Shown here: positions 1,688 through 63,700 of the stretch, piece by piece
How the letters are laid out: every line of letters begins with the position of its first letter
Numbering within the stretch: the first letter of the stretch is position 1
Source of the DNA: Candidatus Woesebacteria bacterium
GTDB taxonomy: Bacteria; Patescibacteriota; Microgenomatia; UBA8517
NCBI GenBank assembly: GCA_963716475.1
Contig: OY970314.1
Coordinates: forward strand, 918,508 to 982,507
Length of the DNA: 64,000 nt
Direction: 5' to 3'
The notes under the pieces: model-generated
Database searches by the model: none
Seen by the model: the letters and a program-made list of their open reading frames with translations, nothing else
What the model was told of the DNA's origin: nothing
Made by a program: the position numbers and the translations under genes

Positions 1688-4021
1688 ATGCTTTTGGATT
1701 CAATTAATTTTACCGGCATAATATTTGCGGCGGTCGCAGTAGGCGTATTCATTATTTTGCTTGTTGCTTTGGCTTACGCGGTCTTTAATTATTTTAAAAA
1801 TAGGGACAGGGAGGCAAACTCGATTGACTCAGTTCTTCTTCAGGTGGCGGTTCCCAGAAATAACGAAATAAAAATAGACGTTATGGAGCAGCTTTTTGCA
1901 TCACTATATTCGATGAAAAGAGGGGGCTGGAAGCAAAAGTTTTCAGTTCAGCCGGCGATCTCCTTTGAAATAGTTGCCAAGCTTGAAGATATTCGTTTTT
2001 ATGTTTGGGCTCCAAAAGAACTTAAGGATTCAGTAGAAAAGCAAATAAACGGGCAATATCCGGACGCAGAAATTATTGAAGTTGATGAATACAATGTTTT
2101 TGGGAGTGAGGGACGGGTTGCCTATAAATCTTTTCAGTTGGGTAAGAGCAATTTTTACCCTATCAAGACTTTTAAGGATCTGCCAACCGATCCGATGCTG
2201 GGGATTACATCTGCTCTTGCCAAAATGGGACCCGGGGAAGCGGCTGTTATACAGGTGCTTGTTTCTCCGGCGGAATCCGATTGGCAAAGGGAGGGGGGTA
2301 AATTTATAGGTGATACTAAAAAACAGGAGAGCGATCCGGAAAAAGCAAGGTTTTCCACATCCGCCAAGACTCTGGAGGCAATTGAAGGAAAGATCGGAAA
2401 GCCCGGTTTTGAAACCTCAATCCGTGTGATTGCAGTTTCTGAAAACGAAGAATCTGCCAAAAACCATGTGGCGAATATAGGCAGCTCGCTGGCTCAGTTT
2501 GCGGGAGAACTTAACTCTTTCAAAAGCCGCAAAATCCATAGAAAATCTGCATTTATGGAAGATTTCCTTTATAGATATCAGCCAATGTTTAATCTCTTGG
2601 GTAACCACATCTCGGTTCTTAATTCTGAAGAGTTGGCAACAATTTTTCACTTTCCGAATAAGCAAATCACCACTCCTCACATCTTTTGGCTGAATTCAAA
2701 AACCGCTCCTGCCCCAAGCCAAATTCCGTCTGAGGGGCTTTACCTGGGCCTAAGCGCTTATAGGGGAATTAAGAGGCAAGTCTATATCGGTAACGAAGAC
2801 AGGATGAGGCATGTTTATGTTATCGGAAAAACAGGTACAGGGAAATCAGAACTTCTCAAAAGCCTGATTTTGCAGGATATTAGGGAAGGTAAGGGTCTGT
2901 GCTTTATGGATCCTCACGGAGATGCGATCGAGGACATTTTAAAACTTATTCCGCCGGAGCGTGCCGAAGACGTAATTTATTTTAACCCTTCCGACACGCA
3001 GCGCCCTCTCGGACTTAATCTTCTTGAGGCCAAAACCGAGGACGAAAAGCATTTTGCGGCAACCGCGGTAATAAATATGATGTACAAGCTTTTTGATCCT
3101 TATAAAACGGGAATTGTCGGGCCGCGTTTTGAACACGCCGTAAGGAACGCCATGCTTACCGCCATGTATGAACCGGGAAGTACTTTCGTGGAAATCATGA
3201 GAATTTTAACTGATGCCAGATTTGTCCAGGAGCTTCTTCCTAAAGTAACTGACCCGATAATCAGAAGATACTGGACGGACCAGATTGCCCAGACCTCTGA
3301 CTTTCATAAATCAGAAGTTCTGGATTACATCACATCAAAATTTGGAAGATTTGTTACGAATAAACTGATCAGAAATATCATCGGTCAATCCCAAAGCTCA
3401 TTTGACTTAAGAAATGTAATGGATGAGGGCAAGATACTTCTCATTAATTTAGCGAAGGGAAGTTTAGGCGAGGAAAACAGCAATTTTCTGGGCCTAATCC
3501 TCGTTCCCCGGGTTTTGATGGCCGCGATGAGCAGAGTTGATGTCGATATGGATAAGAGGCGCGACTTTTATTTCTATGTTGATGAGTTCCAGAATTTTGC
3601 CACACCCGATTTTGCCGTGATCCTTTCCGAGGCCAGGAAATATCGGCTTGGCCTATGTGTTGCCAATCAGTTTATCGGTCAGGTTGAAGAGGAAGTCAAA
3701 AATGCAGTATTTGGCAATGTCGGAACGATTGTTGCCTATAGAGTAGGAGTGAGTGACGCAAGCTACCTTGCTCACGAATATACCCCTGTTTTTGGGGAAG
3801 ACGATCTTCTGAATGTTGAAAGATATCACGCCTACATTAAAACGATTGTTAATAATGAGCCGGTTCCGCCATTTTCTCTCGATACGACTAAGGATTTAAG
3901 TAAAATTAAAGCTATGGAAAGCCCGAGAGTTGCCGAAATTATTAAGGAAATGAGCAGACTTAAGTACGGTCGAGACGAAAAACTTGTCGAAGCGGAGATT
4001 GCAAGGAGGGCCAAGCTCTGA
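1688..4021 (+). CDS. Membrane-anchored P-loop ATPase, VirD4/TraG/HerA-like (type IV coupling protein family)
   Basis: One N-terminal TM helix. Walker A is VIGKTGTGKSEL, followed by DPHGD. Walker B (FYFYVDEFQNFA) lies about 250 aa downstream. Confidence 0.5.
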   Translation: MLLDSINFTGIIFAAVAVGVFIILLVALAYAVFNYFKNRDREANSIDSVLLQVAVPRNNEIKIDVMEQLFASLYSMKRGGWKQKFSVQPAISFEIVAKLEDIRFYVWAPKELKDSVEKQINGQYPDAEIIEVDEYNVFGSEGRVAYKSFQLGKSNFYPIKTFKDLPTDPMLGITSALAKMGPGEAAVIQVLVSPAESDWQREGGKFIGDTKKQESDPEKARFSTSAKTLEAIEGKIGKPGFETSIRVIAVSENEESAKNHVANIGSSLAQFAGELNSFKSRKIHRKSAFMEDFLYRYQPMFNLLGNHISVLNSEELATIFHFPNKQITTPHIFWLNSKTAPAPSQIPSEGLYLGLSAYRGIKRQVYIGNEDRMRHVYVIGKTGTGKSELLKSLILQDIREGKGLCFMDPHGDAIEDILKLIPPERAEDVIYFNPSDTQRPLGLNLLEAKTEDEKHFAATAVINMMYKLFDPYKTGIVGPRFEHAVRNAMLTAMYEPGSTFVEIMRILTDARFVQELLPKVTDPIIRRYWTDQIAQTSDFHKSEVLDYITSKFGRFVTNKLIRNIIGQSQSSFDLRNVMDEGKILLINLAKGSLGEENSNFLGLILVPRVLMAAMSRVDVDMDKRRDFYFYVDEFQNFATPDFAVILSEARKYRLGLCVANQFIGQVEEEVKNAVFGNVGTIVAYRVGVSDASYLAHEYTPVFGEDDLLNVERYHAYIKTIVNNEPVPPFSLDTTKDLSKIKAMESPRVAEIIKEMSRLKYGRDEKLVEAEIARRAKL

Positions 4022-4034
4022 TATTCTTCAAACT

Positions 4035-4880
4035 ATGAATATTGGTGTCATTGGCTACGGCTATGTTGGGCGGGCGACAGGGGAGGGGTTTGCAACAAGT
4101 CCGGCAAATAAAATCTTCTGGTTTGATAAATTTAAGAAAAGTCCAAATACACTTTCGGAAGTAATAGATAAAAGCGACTTCATCTTTATCTGTGTTCCAA
4201 CCCCAATCTTTGAGGATTATTCCGGAATGGATATGAGTATTGTTGAAGGAGTAATCGGTCAAGTGGCCCCCAAAGTTTCGGGAACTGACAAGATTCTGAT
4301 TATTAAATCAACTTCTTTGCCGGGGACAACCAAAAAGATGGCCGAAAAGTATCCCGGAGTTAATTTTGTTATGAATCCGGAGTTTTTAACACAAAAAAAC
4401 GCCAATGCGGATTTCCTCAAGCCATTTAGGACCGTAATCGGATGCGACAACACCGACGTAGGCCTTAGGGTTCAAAAACTTTATGAAACGATTCTTCCTA
4501 AAGGACAGCCGTATTTTATTATCAGTTCGACCAGTGCCGAGCTGGTTAAATATATGAGTAATCTTGTCTTGGCATCAAAAATACTCCTTGCTAACGAATT
4601 TTACGATCTTGCCCAAAAGGTTGGCGCTAATTATCAGGATGTTAGAGCGGCTGTTGAGGCAGACCCGAGAATCGGAAAACACCTGGGGGTTCCCGGGCCG
4701 GATGGGGACAGGGGGTTCGGGGGAGCGTGCTTTCCCAAAGATATGGTGGGGATACTTGGCCTTGCCAAGGATTTGAAAGTTGACGTATCGGCACTTGATG
4801 CTGTCTGGAAGAAAAACCTCAAAATCAGGGAAAATAGGGATTGGGAAGCACTTCCTCAGGCTTTCAAGAAAGCAAAATAA
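4035..4880 (+). CDS. UDP-glucose/GDP-mannose dehydrogenase family protein, short form lacking the C-terminal UDP-binding domain
   Basis: N-terminal Rossmann motif GVIGYGYVGR. Catalytic motif GGACFPKD. Only about 45 aa follow the catalytic Cys, and the repeat element begins immediately after the stop. Confidence 0.6.
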   Translation: MNIGVIGYGYVGRATGEGFATSPANKIFWFDKFKKSPNTLSEVIDKSDFIFICVPTPIFEDYSGMDMSIVEGVIGQVAPKVSGTDKILIIKSTSLPGTTKKMAEKYPGVNFVMNPEFLTQKNANADFLKPFRTVIGCDNTDVGLRVQKLYETILPKGQPYFIISSTSAELVKYMSNLVLASKILLANEFYDLAQKVGANYQDVRAAVEADPRIGKHLGVPGPDGDRGFGGACFPKDMVGILGLAKDLKVDVSALDAVWKKNLKIRENRDWEALPQAFKKAK

Positions 4881-4894
4881 GTTTTCTTGCTTTG

Positions 4895-5160
4895 TCCAAG
4901 CAGATAATTTCAGTACTTCTTTACTTGTTTAAGAAACGGCTTGTCAATTTCTTGCTTCTCCAAGAAGTTGACGAAAGAAGGAGCCGCCGAAAGAATTTGA
5001 TGGCAACTCGTTTCGTTCATATCATGCAAAAGAACTCCCGGCGTATACACTTGGTCGGACTGCTTTTGCTTCCAATTAGAATTCACTCAACTTGCTGAAA
5101 TCAAATTCTTTAAGGCGATAAGAAAACCAAGGTTAAAAGAGCCAGAGTGGATTTATGGTA
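4895..5160. repeat. Structured intergenic repeat, type 1, copy A
   Basis: Near-identical core to copies at 24588-24805, 54996-55245 and 56078-56290. Contains a hairpin gtcaatttcttg/caagaagttgac. Confidence 0.8.
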
Positions 5161-5247
5161 ACAAAGGGGAATTTGGTATAATTGCGACAGTTGGCAAATT
5201 TTGACCCTTCGTTCATCGGCTAGGACGGGTCTCTTATGACAGAAAAT

Positions 5248-5319
5248 GGGTGCGTAGCTCAGCGGTAGAGCGCTACTCTTATAAAGTAGATGTCCATGGT
5301 TCGAATCCATGCGCACCCA
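5248..5319 (+). tRNA. tRNA-Ile, anticodon UAU
   Basis: Cloverleaf: acceptor GGGTGCG/CGCACCC, D-arm GCTC-AGCGGTA-GAGC, anticodon stem CTACT/AGTAG with loop CTTATAA, T-arm CATGG-TTCGAAT-CCATG. Confidence 0.75.
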
Positions 5320-5322
5320 CAC

Positions 5323-6186
5323 TTACAGCTCAATGAGGGATTGCTTTTTGCCGGGTTCGGTTATTTGGGCAAGCTCCAGATATCTTTCGGTTGTCGAAAG
5401 ACGCTTGTGGCCCGAAACCTGGGAAAGAAGAACAATATCAACTCCAGCCTTCAAATTTTCAACAATAAAGGTAGTCCTGAGATCATTTACCGAATAATTG
5501 GGAAGTTCTGCTTTTTGGACATATCTGGCGATTGAAGCTCTGATATTCCTGACGGCCAGGGGTTTACCGTTTTTGCTGATGAACACATAGGGAGAATCTG
5601 CCTTGGGCCTAATTGCCATGTAAGAAGCAAGAACATCAGAAGCAGGTTTATTTACGGGGACGTTTCTTTCCGGTTGTGTAGCGTAAGCCTCAATTTTCAT
5701 TGAATCCGCACCGACATTGGCGGTCTTAAGGCTGGCAACTTCAGAAATCCTAAGCCCCGTCTGAAGGATAAGTTCAATAATTGCAGCGATTCTGATATCA
5801 CTCCTAACGACATCCCTCAAGGCTCTGTATTCCATTTGGGAAAGAAACTTGGGAAGGGTGTTTTCGATTTTAGGATGCGCAACCGAGGCAGAAACGTCGG
5901 AAGTAATGATATTTTCCGAGATCATCCATCTGAAGAACGTTTTAACAGCATTTAGTTTTCTACTTACCGACTTCGGCGTGTATTTGTCCGCCAAAAGGGT
6001 ATCACGGAAGGAATCAAGATCGTCCGGCCTGACCTGTTCCGGCAAGACTCTTTGCCTTTTGATCAGGAAGTCTACAAGCTGTTCAAGGTCGCTTCTGTAG
6101 GCCAGTAAGGTCGCAGGGGAGCGCCCCTTCGCTTTAAGGGACTCAATGAACTTGGGAAACAGGTTTTTGATCGGTTCTTGTGTCAT
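5323..6186 (-). CDS. Tyrosine recombinase/integrase, XerC/XerD family
   Basis: Catalytic R in GLRISE and HKRLSTTERY (H-x-x-R...Y). The stop lies 4 nt from the tRNA-Ile 3' end. An alternative start is at 6219. Confidence 0.8.
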   Translation of the reverse strand: MTQEPIKNLFPKFIESLKAKGRSPATLLAYRSDLEQLVDFLIKRQRVLPEQVRPDDLDSFRDTLLADKYTPKSVSRKLNAVKTFFRWMISENIITSDVSASVAHPKIENTLPKFLSQMEYRALRDVVRSDIRIAAIIELILQTGLRISEVASLKTANVGADSMKIEAYATQPERNVPVNKPASDVLASYMAIRPKADSPYVFISKNGKPLAVRNIRASIARYVQKAELPNYSVNDLRTTFIVENLKAGVDIVLLSQVSGHKRLSTTERYLELAQITEPGKKQSLIEL

Positions 6187-6283
6187 AATCAAAGAAATTA
6201 TTATTTGGCTGCCAGGCACCCAAATCTAATAGCAAGGCTATTATAGCCTAAATTATAGAGTTGTCAACGTATTACAGGATGAT

Positions 6284-23026: not shown

Positions 23027-23039
23027 TTGCATATTATTC

Positions 23040-23220
23040 ATTCTTTGCTTGCCCAAAGAATGAATCAAGAAAAGGCCCGCCGATGGAAATTACATAGTTC
23101 CTCGTCTCGTTCATTCATACAAAAGAACTTCTTCGCCATAAAGGCTCGTCAGACAGCTTTTGTTTCTTAAACGTATTCACTCGGCTCGTCAAAATGTAAT
23201 TTCCAAAGGCGCTGGGGCGG
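23040..23220. repeat. Degenerate copy of the structured intergenic repeat
   Basis: Hairpin cattctttgcttgcccaaagaatg, plus gaaaaggcccgccg and aaaagaact blocks collinear with the type-1 core. Confidence 0.5.
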
Positions 23221-23298
23221 GAAAATCGGATGACAACTCCAAGCGAATTGCAGGGAACCTTTAGGAAATCCTCAGCAATAATTAAGATTTGTAATATA

Positions 23299-24579: not shown

Positions 24580-24587
24580 ACAACCTG

Positions 24588-24805
24588 TCTATTTCTTGCT
24601 TGCCCAAGAAATAGACGAAAGAAGGGCCCGCCGAAAGAATTTGATGGCAACTCGCTTCGTTCGTCTAGTGCAAAAGAACTCCCGGCGTATACACTTGGTC
24701 GGACTACTTTTGCATTCAGAGGAATTCACTCAGCTTGCTGAAATCAAATTCTTTAAGGCGATTTGAAATAGCTAAAAGAGCCAGAGTGGATTTGGGGGAA
24801 CAACT
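24588..24805. repeat. Structured intergenic repeat, type 1, copy B
   Basis: Hairpin gtctatttcttg/caagaaatagac and a core near-identical to copies A, C and D. Confidence 0.8.
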
Positions 24806-24821
24806 GTAAAAGTGGGATGCC

Positions 24822-25358
24822 TTATTCTTTGCAACAATCAACAGCTTTTTTGAAGATTTCGGTGAGTTTGTCAAAGGGGGATGTGGTTCCTTTTAATTTA
24901 ACTTCCTTTTCTCCGACAAAGTTAATGCTGCTGTCATCCATTGGGATGTCTCCGATATCAACAACTTTAAGATTAATTGCCCAGAAGAGGGAATAAAGCC
25001 TAAAGGATTTTTGGAATAGTTCCCAAGCCTCTTTTCTATTACCTTTCTTTTCTTCTTTAGTGCCGACTTCCATTAGGCGCATGGAGGCCGCCAGGAGGTG
25101 TTTACTAATACACCAAACCTCTCCTTCGTAGTCTTTAACTATCTTTTTGAGAAGTTCAGTACGCATGCCCCTAACTTCATTGAGAATATCCAGGTATTGG
25201 GGCTTTTCAGTTTTTTGAGCGGTAAAAAACAAATGCTCTTCAATCGAAATGAGATTCATGATGGCGATTGAGAGATCTTCACTTGAGGAAAGATCTACCT
25301 TACCTGTTTTGGTAACGTTTTCGACCTTCTTTATGAGGTCATTGTAGTTTTTAACCAT
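24822..25358 (-). CDS. Hypothetical protein
   Basis: ORF only. Confidence 0.4.
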   Translation of the reverse strand: MVKNYNDLIKKVENVTKTGKVDLSSSEDLSIAIMNLISIEEHLFFTAQKTEKPQYLDILNEVRGMRTELLKKIVKDYEGEVWCISKHLLAASMRLMEVGTKEEKKGNRKEAWELFQKSFRLYSLFWAINLKVVDIGDIPMDDSSINFVGEKEVKLKGTTSPFDKLTEIFKKAVDCCKE

Positions 25359-25435
25359 GAATGTATTTTAGCATTACTTACTTGCTTGGCCAAGCATGTA
25401 ATTTCCAATGGAGTTAAAACAGGAAGATTGGGGGT

Positions 25436-25876
25436 TCAGCGGGTTATGAAGTAGAAAATTAGGCTTGTAACGACCAATGCCAGGACGGGGAAGACAACTT
25501 TTTGGAACGGGAAGAAGATTTTTTTGAATTTCCCTCTCTGATATTTATCTGCCCGGGCCCCGGCAAGAAAAACAATTGAACCGATGATGATTCCAAAAAC
25601 AATCTTATCCATGCCCCAAATGGTATTAAGTTTAATACCGATTATATGGTCTAATTTAAACGGAATGAGCACAAATAAGTACATTAAAATGAAGGTTAGG
25701 AAATAGTAATATTTGGATTTTAACTTGGGCCATTTTTTGGCAATCCAAGCGATTGTTATAAAAGAGAAGGAGAGAATGAATCCTCCGATCCAAATAGAAG
25801 TAATCAAATCATCAATTCCCAAAAGTCGGGAAATACCTAGGCCCGCAATAACGGTGACTGTGCAAACAGGACACAT
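25436..25876 (-). CDS. Membrane protein in the copper operon, with N-terminal MCPVC
   Basis: Four TM segments and an N-terminal CxxC. Start is adjacent to the copZ stop. Confidence 0.45.
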   Translation of the reverse strand: MCPVCTVTVIAGLGISRLLGIDDLITSIWIGGFILSFSFITIAWIAKKWPKLKSKYYYFLTFILMYLFVLIPFKLDHIIGIKLNTIWGMDKIVFGIIIGSIVFLAGARADKYQRGKFKKIFFPFQKVVFPVLALVVTSLIFYFITR

Positions 25877-45698: not shown

Positions 45699-45723
45699 AA
45701 GCCGCCGAGAGGCGGTTTTTTTA
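45699..45723 (+). terminator. Rho-independent terminator after pilA
   Basis: Stem gccgcc-gaga-ggcggt followed by T8. Confidence 0.7.
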
Positions 45724-45759
45724 TGGTCTAAAAAAGGTTTTCCGTCGGCCTATTTATAC

Positions 45760-46090
45760 CACCACTTGGACAAGCAAGAAATAGACATATTACCTTTGCT
45801 TACCTAAGAAACCATTTCAATACTTCTTTGCTTCTCCAAAGAAGTATTGGGAAGAAAGGAGCCCCCGATTGTCCTTACCAATAATTTCTTAACGTGATTT
45901 GTTGAGGAATGATTACCTTCCGGAATTCACCTTCGACTCCGCTCAGATTCAGTTCCGGCTTTCCTTCCAACAAATCACTAAAGTTATTAGGAGCGGACAA
46001 AAGGGGCTTGTGGGAATAAAAACGTAACCAACTTCGTTGTCAAATTCTTTAAGGCGTTTGAGGCGAATACTAAAGATTTCCAAGGTCTTG
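45760..46090. repeat. Structured intergenic repeat, type 2 copy
   Basis: Shares long collinear blocks with 63280-63700 (hairpin caatacttctttgcttctccaaagaagtattg, attaggagcggacaaaagggg, aacgtaaccaacttcgttgtcaaattctttaaggcgtt). Confidence 0.75.
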
Positions 46091-46098
46091 GTGTTTTA

Positions 46099-54995: not shown

Positions 54996-55245
54996 CTACT
55001 TCTCAGTTGCACAAGAAGCCTACTCAATACTTCTTTGCTTGTCCAAAGATAGCTTGTCTATTTCTTGCTTGTCCAAGAAATAGACGAAAGAAGGACCCGC
55101 CGAAAGAATTTGATAGCAACCCGCTTCGTTCATACCATGCAAAAGAACTCCCGGCGTATACACTTGGTCGGACTACTTTTGCATTCAGAGGAATTCACTC
55201 AGCTTGCTGAAATCAAATTCTTTAAGGCGTTTGGGGAAACAGGAT
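54996..55245. repeat. Structured intergenic repeat, type 1, copy C
   Basis: Hairpins aatacttcttt/aaagat and gtctatttcttg/caagaaatagac, plus the conserved core. Confidence 0.8.
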
Positions 55246-55257
55246 ACAATGTTGATT

Positions 55258-56077: not shown

Positions 56078-56290
56078 TTTCAGTACTTCTTTTCTCACCT
56101 AAAGAATGCCAGTCTATTTCTTGCTTGCCCAAGAAATAGATGAAAGAAGGGCCCGCCGAAAGAATTTGATGGCAACTCGTTTCGTTCATATCATGCAAAA
56201 GAACTCCCGGCGTATACACTTGGTCGGACTGCTTTTGCTTCCAGTGGAATTCACTTAACTCATTGAAATCAAATTCTTTAAGGCGATTTA
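56078..56290. repeat. Structured intergenic repeat, type 1, copy D
   Basis: Near-identical to copy A. Confidence 0.8.
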
Positions 56291-56353
56291 GGGACAAACG
56301 AGGATAAAAATTATGACGGTTTAAGTGGGGTAGAATCGTAATATAATAGTTTT

Positions 56354-58191: not shown

Positions 58192-58584
58192 ATGGACGCA
58201 ACAGAAGAACAAAAAGAGACAGCAATTCGGGATTCCCAGATCGAAAACATGTATAGTAGTTGGCTCAAACATTACCATACAGAGGGTTTGAACGGCATTG
58301 AAGCCAAAAGACAGGCACTTGAGCAAACTCTACACAAAGGAAATTTAATGGAAATGAAGGAGTGGGATGAGGATATTACTCCCGGGCAAATTGCTGACTT
58401 TATTCTTAAAACCGCTCCCGAGGAGGTTGATTGGTGGCTTCATAGACGGAATGACAGCTTAAGAAAATTTCTTGAGCAAAACGAGTCCGATCCGGGTTTT
58501 AGGCGAGTTTCCAGTGTAAAAAGAGAGCTTGAGGAGAAAAACAAAAATAAACCATCGGTTGAAGCTGATTTGCATCAGTCTTAG
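58192..58584 (+). CDS. Hypothetical protein
   Basis: ORF only. Confidence 0.35.
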   Translation: MDATEEQKETAIRDSQIENMYSSWLKHYHTEGLNGIEAKRQALEQTLHKGNLMEMKEWDEDITPGQIADFILKTAPEEVDWWLHRRNDSLRKFLEQNESDPGFRRVSSVKRELEEKNKNKPSVEADLHQS

Positions 58585-59250
58585 GAATTAGCCTTGATTC
58601 TCAGGGCTTTCTTCCTCCTTTTTCTCCGCCGGCTGAGTTTGAGCTTTCTTGAATTTGTCCGGATCAACCTCATTGCCCTTAATAAACGGTATTATGATGG
58701 CCGGCTCTTTGGATCGGCCATAGCCTCCTGTATGAGGGATTTCCGGGAGCCTGGCTAATAGCTTTGTCGAATCCGTGCTCCACTCGTCCTTGTTCTCAAG
58801 CGTCATATTTTTTTCACCTCCTTTCCAAAAAATGAAAAAAGGAGCCTCCCGGCTCCTGGTGAAGTAGTTAAGAGAAACTCAAGACTTGTAGTCAAGTTCC
58901 CCATGCCTTTCTTTGGGTAGGCACCCCTCATTATACTCTGAAACTGCAAATCTTGGGGTTTTTTGAAATGGTAAAACATAGTATATTCGTAGTTATAGAT
59001 GGGCTGTGAGATTCTCGATATGGCCAGAGTAGCTAAAAAGAACCGGAGACTCGCTTGTCCTAAAGTGTGCGGAGCGGAAGCGGACTGTCCGTTTATTGAT
59101 GATGACCAAGTTTTTCCTCCGACCGATATACCTCCGATAAGTACGAATAAATTTGTTTTGAAGAATATCCAAGAGGATTAGCTAGTCATTGAGAATAAAA
59201 GTATTGAATTTGGGGGTTGAACTACCAAAAATATGGAACTAGGATAAGAC

Positions 59251-59550
59251 GTGGTTGAAGCGGATTTATCAACAAAAGAAAAATCTCTTCCTGGAGAAGA
59301 GTCTCCATTAGCAGAAAAAAAGCCACAGGACGTAGACCATCGGCTGGAATTTAGGACAACAGATTCTTTTGGGGCTGACTGCCGGGAGCTTTCCCAAAAA
59401 CTGGGGTGTACATTGGAGACTCTTGTCGGTGATATATTAAGTGCAGGTTACAAATCGATTAAAGTCCTATCTAACGGAAATAAGCAAGCCGCTGTTTCGA
59501 TAAAAGATCATAAGATAGTTGTTGAAGGTCTCAAGAATAGTCGGGATTAG
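59251..59550 (+). CDS. Hypothetical small protein (GTG start)
   Basis: ORF with an AGGA RBS 8 nt upstream. Confidence 0.3.
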   Translation: MVEADLSTKEKSLPGEESPLAEKKPQDVDHRLEFRTTDSFGADCRELSQKLGCTLETLVGDILSAGYKSIKVLSNGNKQAAVSIKDHKIVVEGLKNSRD

Positions 59551-61334: not shown

Positions 61335-62114
61335 TACTTCAGGGAGAAATTTGACAGTTTTCTACAGTACAATCGGTGGATTGGATAGGTCAGTGGGTGG
61401 CAGCGCTTTCCATTCCTCAAAATTCATTGCGGGACCCTGCATAAAACGAGGATGTTCAGAATGTTCTTTTAAGTATGAAACGTACTCTCGATGGAGATCA
61501 AGTTCCCGGCCGAAATCATAATTTTGTTCAGGCGCTGCCGAAGTACCAGGCTCACTTGGTCTACCGTTTTCCATTTGGCTCTATTGTAAACAGGAGTTAA
61601 AAAAAGTGCAACTGGTGAGGAGAAATTTGTCCTTCTGCAAGCTCAGGACTATAGACGATTCGAGCCTGCAAGGCGAGGCCTTGCGAAGTTAAAAAGCCAT
61701 TGGGGTGGTGGTATAATTAAAATATACAAGGGATATACCCGCAAAGGAGGCGGGTATTTTTTTTGAAAAACGTATAAGAACTTGACAATTTCTCAGTAAA
61801 ATTAAATAGAAGAAGTTGAAAACCCTTTAGCATGGGTATCACAATTTGCCTATAAATAGTTTTGTCTGAAAGAATTAAGTATGGATAGAGCAGTAGACCT
61901 GTTAATTGGTATTTTGAACCTGGTCATTCTTGGGCCAGATCCAATTTGGACAAAAATTGTGCTTGTGGTAGGCCTGTTTGTTTGGTTCATTGTTTCGGTA
62001 GGAGTAGTTTGCTTTGTGATCGCATTTGTAACAATTGAGGCAAAACGTTTTTCCTCCCGGATACACAGTCGATAGTGTAGATTTTAAGAGGGAAGGGGAG
62101 TAAGATACTTCAAA

Positions 62115-62624
62115 ATGGAAAAAGTTCTGAGAACGGAAGGGGAATTAATAAAGGCTCTTCAAGATCAATTACATATTTTAAAAGAGGCGATCGAAAGGGT
62201 TAAAACGGGCGACTTTGCCTATACGAAGGTAATAGCCGCCTCCTTAAGGGTTTTGGTTTTAAAGACAACAAAAAATAAACCACTTCTTTTAAACTTAGCC
62301 AAAAAGTATGATTTTCCCTTGATAATTACAAGAGATGTCCCTCCGTTTAAGCCTGCTACGATATCGATTCAAGACCTTTTAGATGAATTGTATTTTGCAA
62401 GCGGTACTGAACATGTGAAGATAACCAAAAGAGAATTGATTGCAAAGTCTGCCCAACAAGAAGGTTTATCTCACGAGGATGAAAGCCTCGATAAAGATTA
62501 TTTAATATCTAAACCAAAAGGATTATATATTGGAGGCTTACCTCCAGACGTAAGGGCATTATTGGGACTAGGTCAATGTATTTATCAGGCTGGAAATAAT
62601 TTGCTTGTTAAACTTTTGGGATGA
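62115..62624 (+). CDS. Hypothetical protein
   Basis: ORF only. Confidence 0.35.
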   Translation: MEKVLRTEGELIKALQDQLHILKEAIERVKTGDFAYTKVIAASLRVLVLKTTKNKPLLLNLAKKYDFPLIITRDVPPFKPATISIQDLLDELYFASGTEHVKITKRELIAKSAQQEGLSHEDESLDKDYLISKPKGLYIGGLPPDVRALLGLGQCIYQAGNNLLVKLLG

Positions 62625-63231: not shown

Positions 63232-63279
63232 AATTAATATTAATACTTAATGGGGTTTCTGAGAAACCACAAAGATGTC

Positions 63280-63700
63280 AACTTCTTACTCGTCTAAGAA
63301 ACACTTTTTCAGTACTTCTTTGCTTCTCCAAAGAAGTACTGGGAAGAAAAGAGCCCCCGATTGTCCTTACCAATAATTTCTTAACGTGCGAAACCGGGGG
63401 ATTAGTTCCCTCTGGAATTCCTTTCAGTCAGTTCCAGTTTCCCCTTCGGTTTCGCACTAAAATTATTAGGAGCGGACAAAAGGGGTTTTGGGGAGCGAAA
63501 ACGTAACCAACTTCGTTGTCAAATTCTTTAAGGCGTTAAGAAAAACAGGGCTAAAAAGCCAGAGTGGGTTGAGTGGAACAAATCACTTCAAATTTCAGGA
63601 GCGTATTCAAATGGGTTTATGGGAACAAAGAACTAAAATTATTAGGAGCGGACAAGAGGGGTTTTAAAAGCGGTTTGGGGAGAATGTAATTGTGATACAA
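63280..63700. repeat. Structured intergenic repeat, type 2 copy, with internal duplication
   Basis: Collinear with 45760-46090. attaggagcggacaa[a/g]agggg occurs twice (63462, 63639). The tail aaaaagccagagtgggtt resembles the type-1 tail. Confidence 0.75.

Follow-up and report, generated by a model that had tools for sequence, protein, structure and literature searches.

The window, that is, the whole stretch of 64 kb of DNA that was analysed, contains seven copies of an intergenic repeat, all on the + strand. Five copies are of type 1 (one of them degenerate) and two are of type 2. The copies were relocated at the places where the first-pass annotation had put a multi-copy repeat. Its statement that all seven loci lie on the + strand was confirmed with a structure-based scanner, which found the 5′ module exactly seven times on the + strand and not once on the − strand. 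The invariant hairpin-loop motif TTGCTTNNCCAA occurs 11 times, where 0.27 occurrences are expected. The unit of about 250 bp has four parts: a hairpin (hp1), a purine linker, a rod and a tail. Across the family, hp1 is 12–14 bp long, with a pyrimidine-rich 5′ arm and a purine-rich 3′ arm, and the rod of about 135 nt has a covarying G+C closing helix of 4–5 bp and conserved unpaired blocks. The features are as follows (bit scores are from the covariance model).

4895..5180, + strand, copy A, type 1 (221 bits): hairpin remnants upstream 4895–4942, hp1 4943–4972, linker 4973–4984, rod 4985–5117, then the tail, with the right end not defined
23027..23278, + strand, degenerate type 1 copy (164 bits): hp1 23036–23065, linker 23066–23077, rod 23078–23211, tail up to 23278
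24580..24823, + strand, copy B, type 1, the reference copy (225 bits): whole insertion, delimited by empty sites
24587..24616, + strand, copy B hp1 (12 bp): GTCTATTTCTTG / loop CTTGCC / CAAGAAATAGAC
24617..24628, + strand, linker of copy B: GAAAGAAGGGCC
24629..24760, + strand, rod of copy B, an imperfect hairpin of 132 nt
24761..24823, + strand, tail of copy B: 3′ arm remnant of another variant (CTAAAAGAGCCAGAGTGGA) and the box TTTGGGGGAACAA
25370..25436, + strand, lone remnant: hairpin CATTACTTACTTGCTTGGCCAAGCATGTAATTT, the beginning of an hp1 and an end that resembles a tail
45755..45785, − strand, reverse-oriented, truncated remnant of a type 1 hairpin (19 bits)
45790..46098, + strand, type 2 copy a, T2a (43 bits): hp1 45819–45848, linker 45849–45861, rod 45862–46006 (CCCC...GGGG), then the tail
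55020..55257, + strand, copy C, type 1 (227 bits): older hairpin remnant 55026–55047, hp1 55056–55085, linker 55086–55097, rod 55098–55229, then the tail
56083..56353, + strand, copy D, type 1, between divergent genes (220 bits): remnant 56083–56111, hp1 56112–56141, linker 56142–56153, rod 56154–56285, then the tail
63275..63690, + strand, type 2 copy b, T2b (39 bits): hp1 63311–63340, linker 63341–63353, rod 63354–63485

Copy B fills the space between two convergent genes exactly, from stop codon to stop codon. Its hp1 has the pyrimidine-rich 5′ arm and the purine-rich 3′ arm of the family. In the linker, AAAGAA mirrors AAGAAA of the hp1 arm, and GGC pairs with GCC of the loop (the pseudoknot lock). 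The rod is closed by CGCC...GGCG, has an internal loop of G opposite AA, and contains the conserved blocks TCGTTCAT, AACTCC, CTYGTCRRAC, and GWATTCACT. The remnant arm in the tail is the arm that closes the rod in loci L053 and L059. Type 1 cores share 87–92% pairwise identity, and the degenerate copy shares 62–64% with them, which is less than the near-identity first reported. The elements are also longer than the copies of about 220–260 bp first placed. The limits given by the empty sites of copy B and of the degenerate copy show that a tail of 60–70 nt past the rod belongs to the insertion. The type 2 copies have the same 5′ module as type 1 and are hit by the covariance model (43 and 39 bits); type 2 is a member of the same superfamily.

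The tail of T2a bears a type 1 3′-arm remnant that ends in AAGGCG at 46056, and there are four stacked 3′-arm remnants from different variants 3′ of the T2b rod. The reverse remnant at 45755–45785 directly follows an ordinary intrinsic terminator (45701–45722). The glutamate dehydrogenase (GDH) gene has a conserved promoter-like sequence, and the degenerate copy is located upstream of that sequence. The copies had been described as lying mostly 3′ of + strand genes. This holds for five of the seven, but D and T2b are between divergent genes, and B, C, and T2a are between convergent ones.

Fold, covariation and the mirror-repeat module

Covariation was evaluated on 32 full-length copies from the window and from metagenomes of the candidate phyla radiation (CPR). 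One structure fits all of these, with 88% of cells paired compared to 61% in shuffles. Double changes are found at 47 of the 51 modelled pairs, so the covariation that the first-pass annotation put forward as a check does hold. In a control with the partners slid along, just 37–48% of cells were paired. For hp1 alone, 11 of the 13 modelled pairs show two-sided changes and 97% of cells are paired. In the hairpin of copy A, both the compensatory change and the T·G wobble first noted are real. Independent single-sequence folds gave the same architecture, which is also predicted with DNA energy parameters. The folding z scores are −5.5 (+ strand) and −4.1 (− strand) as RNA, and −3.4 (+ strand) and −2.7 (− strand) as DNA. 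In these models, the element folds far beyond chance. The − strand has the lower minimum free energy as RNA in 26 of the 32 copies. In the model-aligned helices there are 99 G·U against 23 A·C on the + strand, a count that is biased since the alignment was fitted to the + strand. Over 44 distinct hairpins, T·G/G·T (6) and C·A (4) wobbles are about equal, and thus the hairpin wobbles do not identify the strand.

The repeats are non-coding, as had been proposed. A 32-residue reading frame in the rod, the only candidate for a small peptide, was rejected, as its ATG reads ATA in copy C. The element is a non-coding, multi-copy, structured sequence that is selected for its secondary structure.

The A-rich linker 3′ of hp1 mirrors the purine arm of the hairpin at 301 of 324 positions in 51 elements, and G positions are matched at 46 of 54. 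The mirror runs are AAGAAA, AAAGAAG, AAGAAAAA, and similar, and the two runs are in most cases 6 nt apart. After the mirror run, the 3′ end of the linker pairs with the 3′ half of the hp1 loop, and this pairing covaries too. Mirror run and loop pairing are contiguous over at least eight positions in 44 of the 51 elements, compared to 2% of shuffles and 25% of partner swaps. This contiguous-run test replaced a first triad scoring scheme, which failed to tell real elements and controls apart owing to the low complexity of the runs. On the + strand, the third strand begins only 1 nt after a 5-bp distal stem, which covaries. Non-Watson–Crick positions of the stem give no guide to the strand: there the third strand follows one residue in four cases and the other in three. 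The 5′ module is also present in Proteobacteria, Bacteroidota, and Desulfuromonadales; locus L010, for instance, is from Ectopseudomonas toyotomiensis JCM 15604. This spread, the pseudoknot/mirror module, the rod with its covarying helix, and the nesting described below go beyond the first-pass annotation.

The order of pyrimidine arm, purine arm, and purine third strand is that of the class II purine-motif intrastrand triplex, which was shown for E. coli BoxC/TM_ECO by CD and NMR (PMC4666352). The purine-motif triplex is stated not to form in RNA, while the pyrimidine-motif arrangement can form in RNA (PMC4666352). The module is compatible, on the + strand, with an intrastrand DNA triplex of the purine motif and, on the − strand, with an H-type pseudoknot bearing a U·A-U triple helix.

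Several searches for a known family were made. With Rfam (release 15) at gathering thresholds, the whole window gave tRNAs only. Copy B gave a single chance miRNA match at E up to 10 on either strand, and twenty loci from other phyla gave nothing. The Rfam comparison suggested by the first-pass annotation thus turned up no matching family. There were zero matches for both patterns in viral contigs, and BLAST with a Pseudomonas member found no match in a plasmid collection. A full-text literature search for the loop sequence retrieved unrelated primers only. Nothing relevant was found in the literature on MITEs in CPR or on triple-helix pseudoknots in MITEs; the sole related work found was the intrastrand-triplex paper (PMC4666352). 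As far as these comparisons go, the fold appears to match no catalogued RNA family and no described repeat among those found. The − strand apex reads CUGACGA-stem-GAA, which resembles a hammerhead core, and a hammerhead ribozyme was therefore considered. It was ruled out: the motif has two helices only and no three-way junction, position 15.1 would be G where a hammerhead has an A15.1-U16.1 pair, and the Rfam search of copy B (E up to 10) hit none of the hammerhead models.

Insertion sites, nesting and orientation

Copy B and the degenerate copy are insertions of about 250 bp relative to empty sites. At the site of copy B there are 0–1 nt in the syntenic loci L026, L029, and L024, and the insertion of the degenerate copy is missing from L026 and L024. 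The flanks of both were inspected for target-site duplications, as had been recommended, and none was found against these empty sites. Terminal inverted repeats are absent as well: copy B ends in ACAACCTG... and ...GGGATGCC, and the ends of the degenerate copy are likewise not inverted. There is a strong hairpin 7–10 nt from the left end. At the two sites with a defined right end, nothing comparable to the left hairpin was recognised near the 3′ end. In most copies, the sequence that borders the left end belongs to an older hairpin and stops at CAAG, AAAG, or TAAG; it stops at TAG for copy B and at TAA(T) for the degenerate copy. This is suggestive of the fixed tetra- or pentanucleotide 3′ of which IS200/IS605-type elements insert, but the motif is not fixed.

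Relatives differ sharply in copy number. Seven elements in the 64-kb window stand against none in 168 kb from ten related loci. The same sites are filled in genomes whose flanking proteins are only 45–60% identical. At one orthologous site there are full elements of different variants in L029 and L033, the remnant 25370–25436 in the window, and a spacer of only 9 nt in L026. At a site common to L055 and L058, the new-type copy of L058 lies inside the truncated hairpin of an L055-type copy. A truncated older hairpin is present on the left side of most of the 31 CPR copies listed. The copies are insertions of mobile DNA, and the element is self-targeting, with new copies placed within the truncated hairpins of older ones. 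A search with the DUF2207 protein for synteny around copies C and D gave homologues too distant to help. Several contigs of metagenome-assembled genomes (MAGs) end within the element.

By GC skew, which is a proxy for the lagging-strand template and on short contigs is confounded with gene-strand bias, the + strand of the element lies on the G-rich (leading) strand at 16 of 17 single-orientation CPR loci and for all seven window copies. About 38 CPR copies are available, and five of these are against the rule, namely L053 and, from each of the four inverted pairs, the second copy. The claim that orientation is always the same holds inside the window but not elsewhere, with inverted tail-to-tail pairs in L044, L049, L058, and L055. 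Genes next to the CPR copies point either way. Some copies lie antisense between genes (L029, L053, and L054), and others lie in divergent regions (D, T2b, L036, L040, and L061). In CPR, orientation tracks GC skew and is independent of the direction of neighbouring genes. In other phyla, no correlation between GC skew and orientation was found (13/23).

No transposase of any kind was detected by Pfam among the 40 window proteins scanned. None was seen in the lists of open reading frames around copies in other phyla, which are uninformative in high-GC DNA. An all-against-all BLAST of neighbours returned no recurrent protein family besides orthologous housekeeping neighbours.

Interpretation and relation to known repeats

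We propose, with a probability of about 45%, that the repeats are a non-autonomous, self-targeting element of about 250 bp, which belongs to a wide family and is mobilised as single-stranded DNA (ssDNA). The element would travel in this single-stranded form. Its + strand, the lagging-strand template, would fold into the hairpin, a purine-motif intrastrand triplex, and the rod, the triplex being made of A·A-T and G·G-C triads and locked by the loop pairing. A trans-acting enzyme may recognise the folded + strand; candidates are an HUH-type transposase that recognises hairpins, as those of IS200/IS605 or RAYT do, or some other recombinase acting on ssDNA. Insertion would occur 3′ of a short AAG/TAG-like target, a motif that rests on two fully defined sites. 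The hairpin of the element itself would offer such a target, which would account for the nesting and for sites being occupied more than once. The lagging-strand-template orientation bias is that reported for IS200/IS605 elements. Several observations count against this proposal: no transposase was found near the copies among the 40 window proteins scanned, the right end lacks a hairpin like the left one, five CPR copies break the orientation rule, the GC-skew proxy is confounded and gives no correlation in other phyla, the − strand folds more stably as RNA and there the module reads as a textbook RNA pseudoknot, and for a + strand triplex the third strand would start only 1 nt past the covarying distal stem.

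A broader claim is more tentative, the odds being somewhat against it. The module of hairpin, mirror run, and loop lock, together with the rod and its apical motif (AACTC...CTCAGACA), may be one fold that extends from CPR to Proteobacteria and Bacteroidota. It may serve as the recognition structure of a new class of mobile element, either as triplex-folded ssDNA or as an RNA with a terminal triple-helix pseudoknot.

The element could instead encode a structured RNA on the − strand, with the rod 5′ and an H-type pseudoknot 3′, and this RNA may be functional or be the mobile form. We consider this unlikely. A U-rich loop 1 would lie in the major groove of the stem, with U·A-U and C+·G-C triples, and the structure could serve as a 3′-end-protecting or protein-binding module. 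On this strand, the mirror repeat becomes the pyrimidine-motif arrangement, which is possible in RNA (PMC4666352). The module would have a stem 1 of 3–5 bp, a U-rich loop 1, a stem 2 of 12 bp, and a loop 3 of 3 nt, with one connecting nucleotide after five further base pairs. Its connectivity obeys the topology rules of H-type pseudoknots. The conserved blocks TCGTTCAT and ATTCACTC become 5′-GAGUGAAU/5′-AUGAACGA, a helix with two tandem G·A pairs, and the lower minimum free energy of the − strand also speaks for this reading. Against it, transcription would be head-on to replication in about 87% of copies, a bias for which the reading gives no reason. No promoter was found, the copies are dispensable in relatives, Rfam gave no match on either strand, and the (biased) excess of G·U over A·C favours the + strand.

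One of the two explanations offered by the first-pass annotation was a structured ncRNA or 3′-UTR element. In this reading, a structured + strand RNA (3′-UTR, terminator, or small RNA) would be carried on a mobile repeat and read through from upstream genes. Copy B has only 7 nt upstream of its hairpin and so brings no promoter of its own. The strong covariation would be expected of such an RNA, the window copies are co-oriented with the majority of genes and with replication, and five of seven come after a + strand gene. In most copies, the G+C-rich rod base is followed by TTT(T), which is terminator-like. These U-tracts are short, however: the base (GTGGG or GGCG) is followed by 3–4 T only, and the rods were not called by a terminator consensus scan. 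The gene upstream of T2a already has a canonical terminator. In other loci, orientation ignores the adjacent genes, and copies occur antisense or in divergent promoter regions. The mirror repeat would be left with no known role, since RNA is reported to be unable to adopt the purine-motif triplex (PMC4666352). This reading, as first proposed, does not stand up well, and we think it improbable.

A host-level DNA signal on the lagging-strand template that recombination, and not a transposase of its own, would spread is very doubtful. Candidates are a signal for priming or of the primosome type, a promoter active on single strands, or a hotspot of recombination or instability. The link between orientation and GC skew would agree with this, as would the filling of the same sites in such diverged genomes. 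The rod with its conserved pyrimidine-rich bubble resembles single-strand origins and ssDNA promoters. A link between intrastrand triplex repeats and local instability of the genome has been described (PMC4666352). The nesting pattern is insertion-like, however, copy numbers are very different between relatives, and close relatives lack elements at the same sites, so that no essential role is attached to them. The remaining reading is a plain MITE that descends from an insertion sequence with a DDE transposase. It fits a short, non-coding, multi-copy (seven copies, about 250 bp), intergenic sequence that folds into a long hairpin, and the mobility first suggested stands; but with neither terminal inverted repeats nor target-site duplications at the two defined insertions, an inverted repeat that is internal rather than terminal, and a biased orientation, it is hardly tenable.

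One close likeness to the proposed ssDNA element is seen in the PIT/BoxC/TM_ECO intrastrand triplex repeats, which occur in E. coli and other Proteobacteria (Hoyne et al. 2000; Holder et al. 2015, PMC4666352). Like the present element, these repeats are interspersed and intergenic, and they run through a pyrimidine arm, a loop, a purine arm, a short turn, and a purine mirror copy. Both are strain-variable, often occur as inverted pairs, and have no known function. TM_ECO is G/C-rich (CCCTCNCCC...GGGNGAGGG...GGGNGAGGG), with 9 triads, a 3-nt turn, and nothing further. The present triads, in contrast, are A/T-rich with one or two G's, the hairpin extends five base pairs past the triad run, and the third strand then pairs with the loop. 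A conserved rod of 135 nt and a tail are added. The present runs depart from the PIT/BoxC/TM_ECO consensus CCCTCNCCC-N3-6-GGGNGAGGG-N3-GGGNGAGGG. The element is like PIT/BoxC/TM_ECO in design and is not a member. G-rich BoxC-like motifs adjoin family members in L003 and L023, and thus both kinds of repeat coexist.

In their mode of spread, PATEs (non-autonomous elements derived from IS200/IS605) and REP/REPIN sequences, which RAYT (HUH Y1) transposases mobilise, are comparable. They have no terminal inverted repeats or target-site duplications, carry hairpins near their ends, use a short specific target, are oriented with the lagging-strand template, and rely on a trans-acting enzyme. The absence of both kinds of repeat, the near-end hairpin, the lagging-template orientation as judged by GC skew, and non-coding copies are shared with the present element. 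IS200/IS605 elements have a similar subterminal hairpin at the 3′ end also. Unlike PATEs and REPs, the present element has no TnpA or RAYT found in the window and no matching right-end hairpin. REP/REPIN sequences are palindromes of 20–40 nt with a conserved 5′ GTAG, whereas the unit here is about 250 nt with no conserved GTAG. Inverted doublets, which are frequent among REP/REPINs, do occur here (L044, L049, L058, and L014). The triplex/pseudoknot module and the rod have no counterpart in PATEs or REP/REPINs, and, in contrast to REPs, the 5′ module stays almost the same from phylum to phylum.

ERIC, Correia/NEMIS, pneumococcal BOX, and RUP are intergenic repeats of 100–250 bp with long hairpins, and may carry promoters or terminators. 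The present element resembles them in size, hairpin fold, modularity (BOX), and occasional nesting. ERIC, Correia, and RUP have terminal inverted repeats and usually TA duplications, while the present element has neither at its two defined sites. These families, BOX included, are confined to one genus or family, whereas the present 5′ module spans phyla. We know of no pseudoknot or triplex module in any of them.

H-type pseudoknots with a major-groove triple helix occur in telomerase RNA and in the SAM-II and preQ1-II riboswitches; there are also ENE-type triple helices. The present module, read on the − strand, has their connectivity, with a U-rich loop 1 parallel to the purine strand of stem 2, and shares the short stem 1 and the short loop 3. 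Such structures belong to functional RNAs present in single copy or to elements of viruses and lncRNAs, whereas the present module sits in a multi-copy mobile repeat.

Interspersed structured repeats and intrastrand triplex motifs are each known in bacteria. For the latter, there has been to our knowledge no evidence so far of selection on the triplex itself. Here, the third-strand G's track the arm G's (46/54) across dozens of variants and several phyla. Together with the covariation of the loop pairs, this is the kind of evidence that normally establishes an RNA structure. If the conserved triplex fold is true, it would be the first natural intrastrand triplex maintained by covariation across phyla. 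A DNA triplex would offer a testable natural substrate for triplex-dependent effects on transposition or replication; an RNA would be a new bacterial triple-helix pseudoknot. For annotation, the family accounts for unusually long intergenic regions and for contig breaks, and streamlined CPR genomes can be invaded by such repeats. Members are present in cultured Pseudomonas strains (L003, L004, L010, and L018), and experiments are thus feasible.

Repeat copies and the covarying rod

All the repeat copies claimed by the first-pass annotation are present in the window. The elements consist, from 5' to 3', of a hairpin, a purine linker, a rod and a tail. A dedicated scanner built for the 5' module (hairpin and linker) was run over both strands and found exactly seven modules, seven on the + strand and none on the - strand, as had been claimed.

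Approximate positions of the copies, with flanking genes; insertion lengths are from alignment to syntenic loci of relatives
4895-5180 (+), copy A, type 1; co-directional genes
23027-23278 (+), degenerate copy; co-directional genes; 252 bp insertion
24580-24823 (+), copy B, type 1; convergent genes; 244 bp insertion
45790-46098 (+), copy T2a, type 2; convergent genes
55020-55257 (+), copy C, type 1; convergent genes
56083-56353 (+), copy D, type 1; divergent genes
63275-63690 (+), copy T2b, type 2; divergent genes

Identity among the type 1 cores is 87-92%, falling to 62-64% between these and the degenerate copy. Common to all copies are an A/T-rich hairpin of 12-13 bp whose loop context, TTGCTTNNCCAA, is invariant (found 11 times in the window vs 0.27 expected), an A-rich linker and the end motif AAATTCTTTAAGGCG (six exact occurrences). 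The Rfam search of the window matched only tRNAs and returned no family for the repeats. Two type 1 rods (55110-55138 and 56166-56194, +) contain promoter-like TTGATA/TTGATG and TACCAT/TATCAT boxes 17 nt apart that match at 9/12 positions; the count in the region is not above shuffle expectation.

A covariance model trained on five window copies (four type 1 and the degenerate one) yielded 32 full-length copies. A metagenome scan with the conserved rod blocks as query gave about 20 true members on contigs of candidate phyla radiation (CPR) bacteria and a few chance matches. Compensatory changes had been proposed from the window hairpins, and the 32-copy alignment bears this out: 88% of cells are paired vs 61% in shuffles, both sides change in 47 of 51 pairs, and pairing falls to 37-48% when partners are slid by 1-3 columns. 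This alignment is fitted to the model; single-sequence folds made independently gave the same architecture. The helix that closes the rod covaries (CGCC/GGCG, CCCC/GGGG, CCCAC/GTGGG, CCCAT/ATGGG, CTCAC/GTGAG) and adjoins a small asymmetric internal loop, and the blocks TCGTTCAT, AACTCC, CTCGTCARAC and GWATTCACT are invariant. One member (L054, 5560-5669, -; L numbers denote loci in other genomes or metagenomes) has an additional G+C-rich hairpin, ccgccggccctgagagcctctggctcggagagggc, between linker and rod, which shows that this junction tolerates insertions. The rod apex (e.g. 24670-24715, -) resembles a hammerhead core, with (C/U)UGACGA, a 3-bp stem and GAA; it is incomplete and has no Rfam match, and this candidate was rejected. 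Deltaproteobacterial and Sedimenticola members (L006, L012, L019, L022) keep a related motif at the apex, AACTCG...CTCAGACA.

Mirror symmetry and loop pairing in the 5' module

A genome scan with the hairpin-plus-linker pattern found 23 loci in Pseudomonas, Dokdonella, Sedimenticola, Chitinophagaceae, Desulfuromonadales and others. Each shows the same hairpin with an A-rich linker and GGGCCCCCCGA, and then a second hairpin or a rod. Some are also matched by the CPR covariance model (L006 along its whole length, with 44 bits).

The set of 51 elements shows two relations. In the first, the purine runs of the linker and of the hairpin's 3' arm mirror each other and are not direct copies (AAGAAAAA with AAAAAGAA, AAAAAGA with AGAAAAA, AAAGAAG with GAAGAAA). 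In the second, the linker ends in 2-5 bases complementary to the loop's 3' half, and these pairs covary (GCC/GGC, GTC/GAC, CTC/GAG, CACC/GGTG, CGTC/GACG, GCACT/AGTGC). Both relations share one register, which is contiguous over at least eight positions in 44 of the 51 elements, vs 2% when linkers are shuffled and 25% when they are exchanged among elements. Mirror identity is 301/324 positions, with 46 of 54 G's matched. The runs are mostly 6 nt apart, corresponding to five further covarying hairpin base pairs and one nucleotide. Loop pairing exceeded all 500 shuffles on the model-fitted alignment, in which the linker is poorly aligned.

Insertion, nesting and orientation

The window copies are insertions in the genome of a CPR bacterium of Microgenomates type. 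We compared them with syntenic loci of relatives whose glutamate dehydrogenase (GDH) proteins are 86-89% identical. There, 0-1 nt separate the GDH gene from its convergent neighbor, and the spacer upstream of GDH is about 40 nt. In the alignments to these loci, neither duplicated flanking bases nor inverted termini were found at the copy B and degenerate insertions, and a classical MITE is the weakest of the rival explanations. Ten related loci (168 kb) hold no copy of the element. A third site between two - strand genes (25358-25436) occurs in three states: L029 and L033 have full elements there, each of a different variant, the window has a 78-nt remnant, and L026 has a 9-nt spacer. The 40 window proteins scanned include no transposase or reverse transcriptase.

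The elements are nested. To the left of most copies lies an older, truncated hairpin, with its 5' arm, loop and CAAG, AAAG or TAAG, followed by about 8-11 nt (CAGATAATTT-like) and the new hairpin. At one orthologous site, L055 carries an intact element; in L058 the hairpin of that variant breaks off after CAAG and a complete element of a different variant comes next. The tails consist of stacked 3'-arm ends from other variants, and every such end has a TTTGGGGAACAAA-like box; the tail of T2b holds four. Copies A and B carry the same remnant, so the master copy takes its remnants along. At several intergenic sites, elements are present in genomes that share only 45-90% identity in the flanking proteins. 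A signal in host DNA is one rival explanation of the family as a whole; self-targeting, presumably at a target motif, accounts for this shared occupancy and no function is needed. Eight contigs end in or next to an element (L001, L009, L012, L013, L016, L017, L020, L021), seven of them from MAGs and four from a single Sedimenticola MAG, which suggests a copy number high enough to break assemblies.

The first-pass annotation also held that orientation is always the same. This is true of the window (7/7), where GC skew is positive throughout and genes are mostly on the + strand, but not elsewhere. The + strand of the element is the G-rich strand in 16 of 17 single-orientation CPR loci and in all seven window copies. 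Adjacent genes run in either direction, and elements lie antisense between genes (L029, L054) or in divergent regions (L036, L040, L061). The exceptions to the skew rule are L053 and the second member of inverted tail-to-tail pairs in L044, L049, L058 and L055. In other phyla, where loci are short, no relation was seen (13/23). The inverted tail-to-tail pairs span 1067-1496 in L044, 1540-1934 in L049, 1262-1649 in L058 and ~2200-2500 in L014, where one complete unit and then its reverse complement stand in a row, much as in a REPIN.

Candidate folds, mobility and neighborhood

The repeats are best read as copies of a selfish, non-autonomous element that needs its fold in order to move. The G-rich leading strand serves as template for lagging-strand synthesis, and it is the one on which IS200/IS605 elements have their active strand. 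The element would be mobilized as single-stranded DNA on this template by an enzyme supplied in trans, for which the HUH type is the closest precedent.

A - strand RNA is the first rival. Read on this strand, the pyrimidine third strand is parallel to the purine arm (U.A-U, C+.G-C), and the module amounts to an H-type pseudoknot with a triple helix in the major groove, which RNA is known to form. RNA folding made the - strand more stable in 26 of 32 copies, and its invariant blocks are readable as a helix with tandem G.A pairs; with DNA parameters, both strands have good predicted folds. A + strand RNA element is a further rival. The hairpin wobbles favor neither strand (T.G in six cases vs C.A in four), and model-aligned helices have a + strand G.U excess (99 vs 23), a count biased by the model fit.

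The + strand order of pyrimidine arm, purine arm and purine mirror run is that of a class II purine-motif intrastrand triplex (A.A-T, G.G-C), which the selfish element may form, as in the E. coli BoxC/PIT/TM_ECO repeat. In that repeat the triplex was physically demonstrated for DNA, and purine-motif triplexes are reported not to form in RNA (PMC4666352). G-rich BoxC/TM_ECO-like motifs (e.g. CCCTCTCTATGGGAGAGGGACCGAGGGTGAGG) directly adjoin A-rich family members in one Pseudomonas genome (L003, ~2350-2400) and one Chitinophagales genome (L023, ~4460-4500 and ~4760-4800).

The family matches no Rfam model and nothing in the literature searched. The nearest described are the G-rich BoxC/TM_ECO triplex motifs and the HUH-mobilized REP and PATE elements. 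The family is set apart from both by its triad composition, loop lock, extended hairpin, conserved rod and a 5' module near-identical across phyla. The chance that it represents an undescribed mobilization system or RNA fold is substantial.

Copy A lies within a row of features that perhaps marks one edge of an integrated element.

Features around copy A
1688-4021, TraG/TrwB-like coupling protein
3984-4880, UDP-glucose dehydrogenase without C-terminal domain
5248-5320, tRNA-Ile(UAU), after copy A
5323-6219 (-), XerC/D-type tyrosine recombinase

TraG-like genes also adjoin members in L040 and L054. Two ORF-poor stretches of the window, 58584-59251 (~670 nt) and 61354-62115 (~760 nt), have no Rfam match; a clear intrinsic terminator lies at ~61738-61768 in the latter, with an extended -10-like TGGTATAAT at ~61709. 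In the complete CPR genome CP129472.1 (L063, 13455-16816), a gene-poor stretch downstream of a DUF2207 gene contains two LAGLIDADG genes, which probably mark an intron-bearing rRNA.
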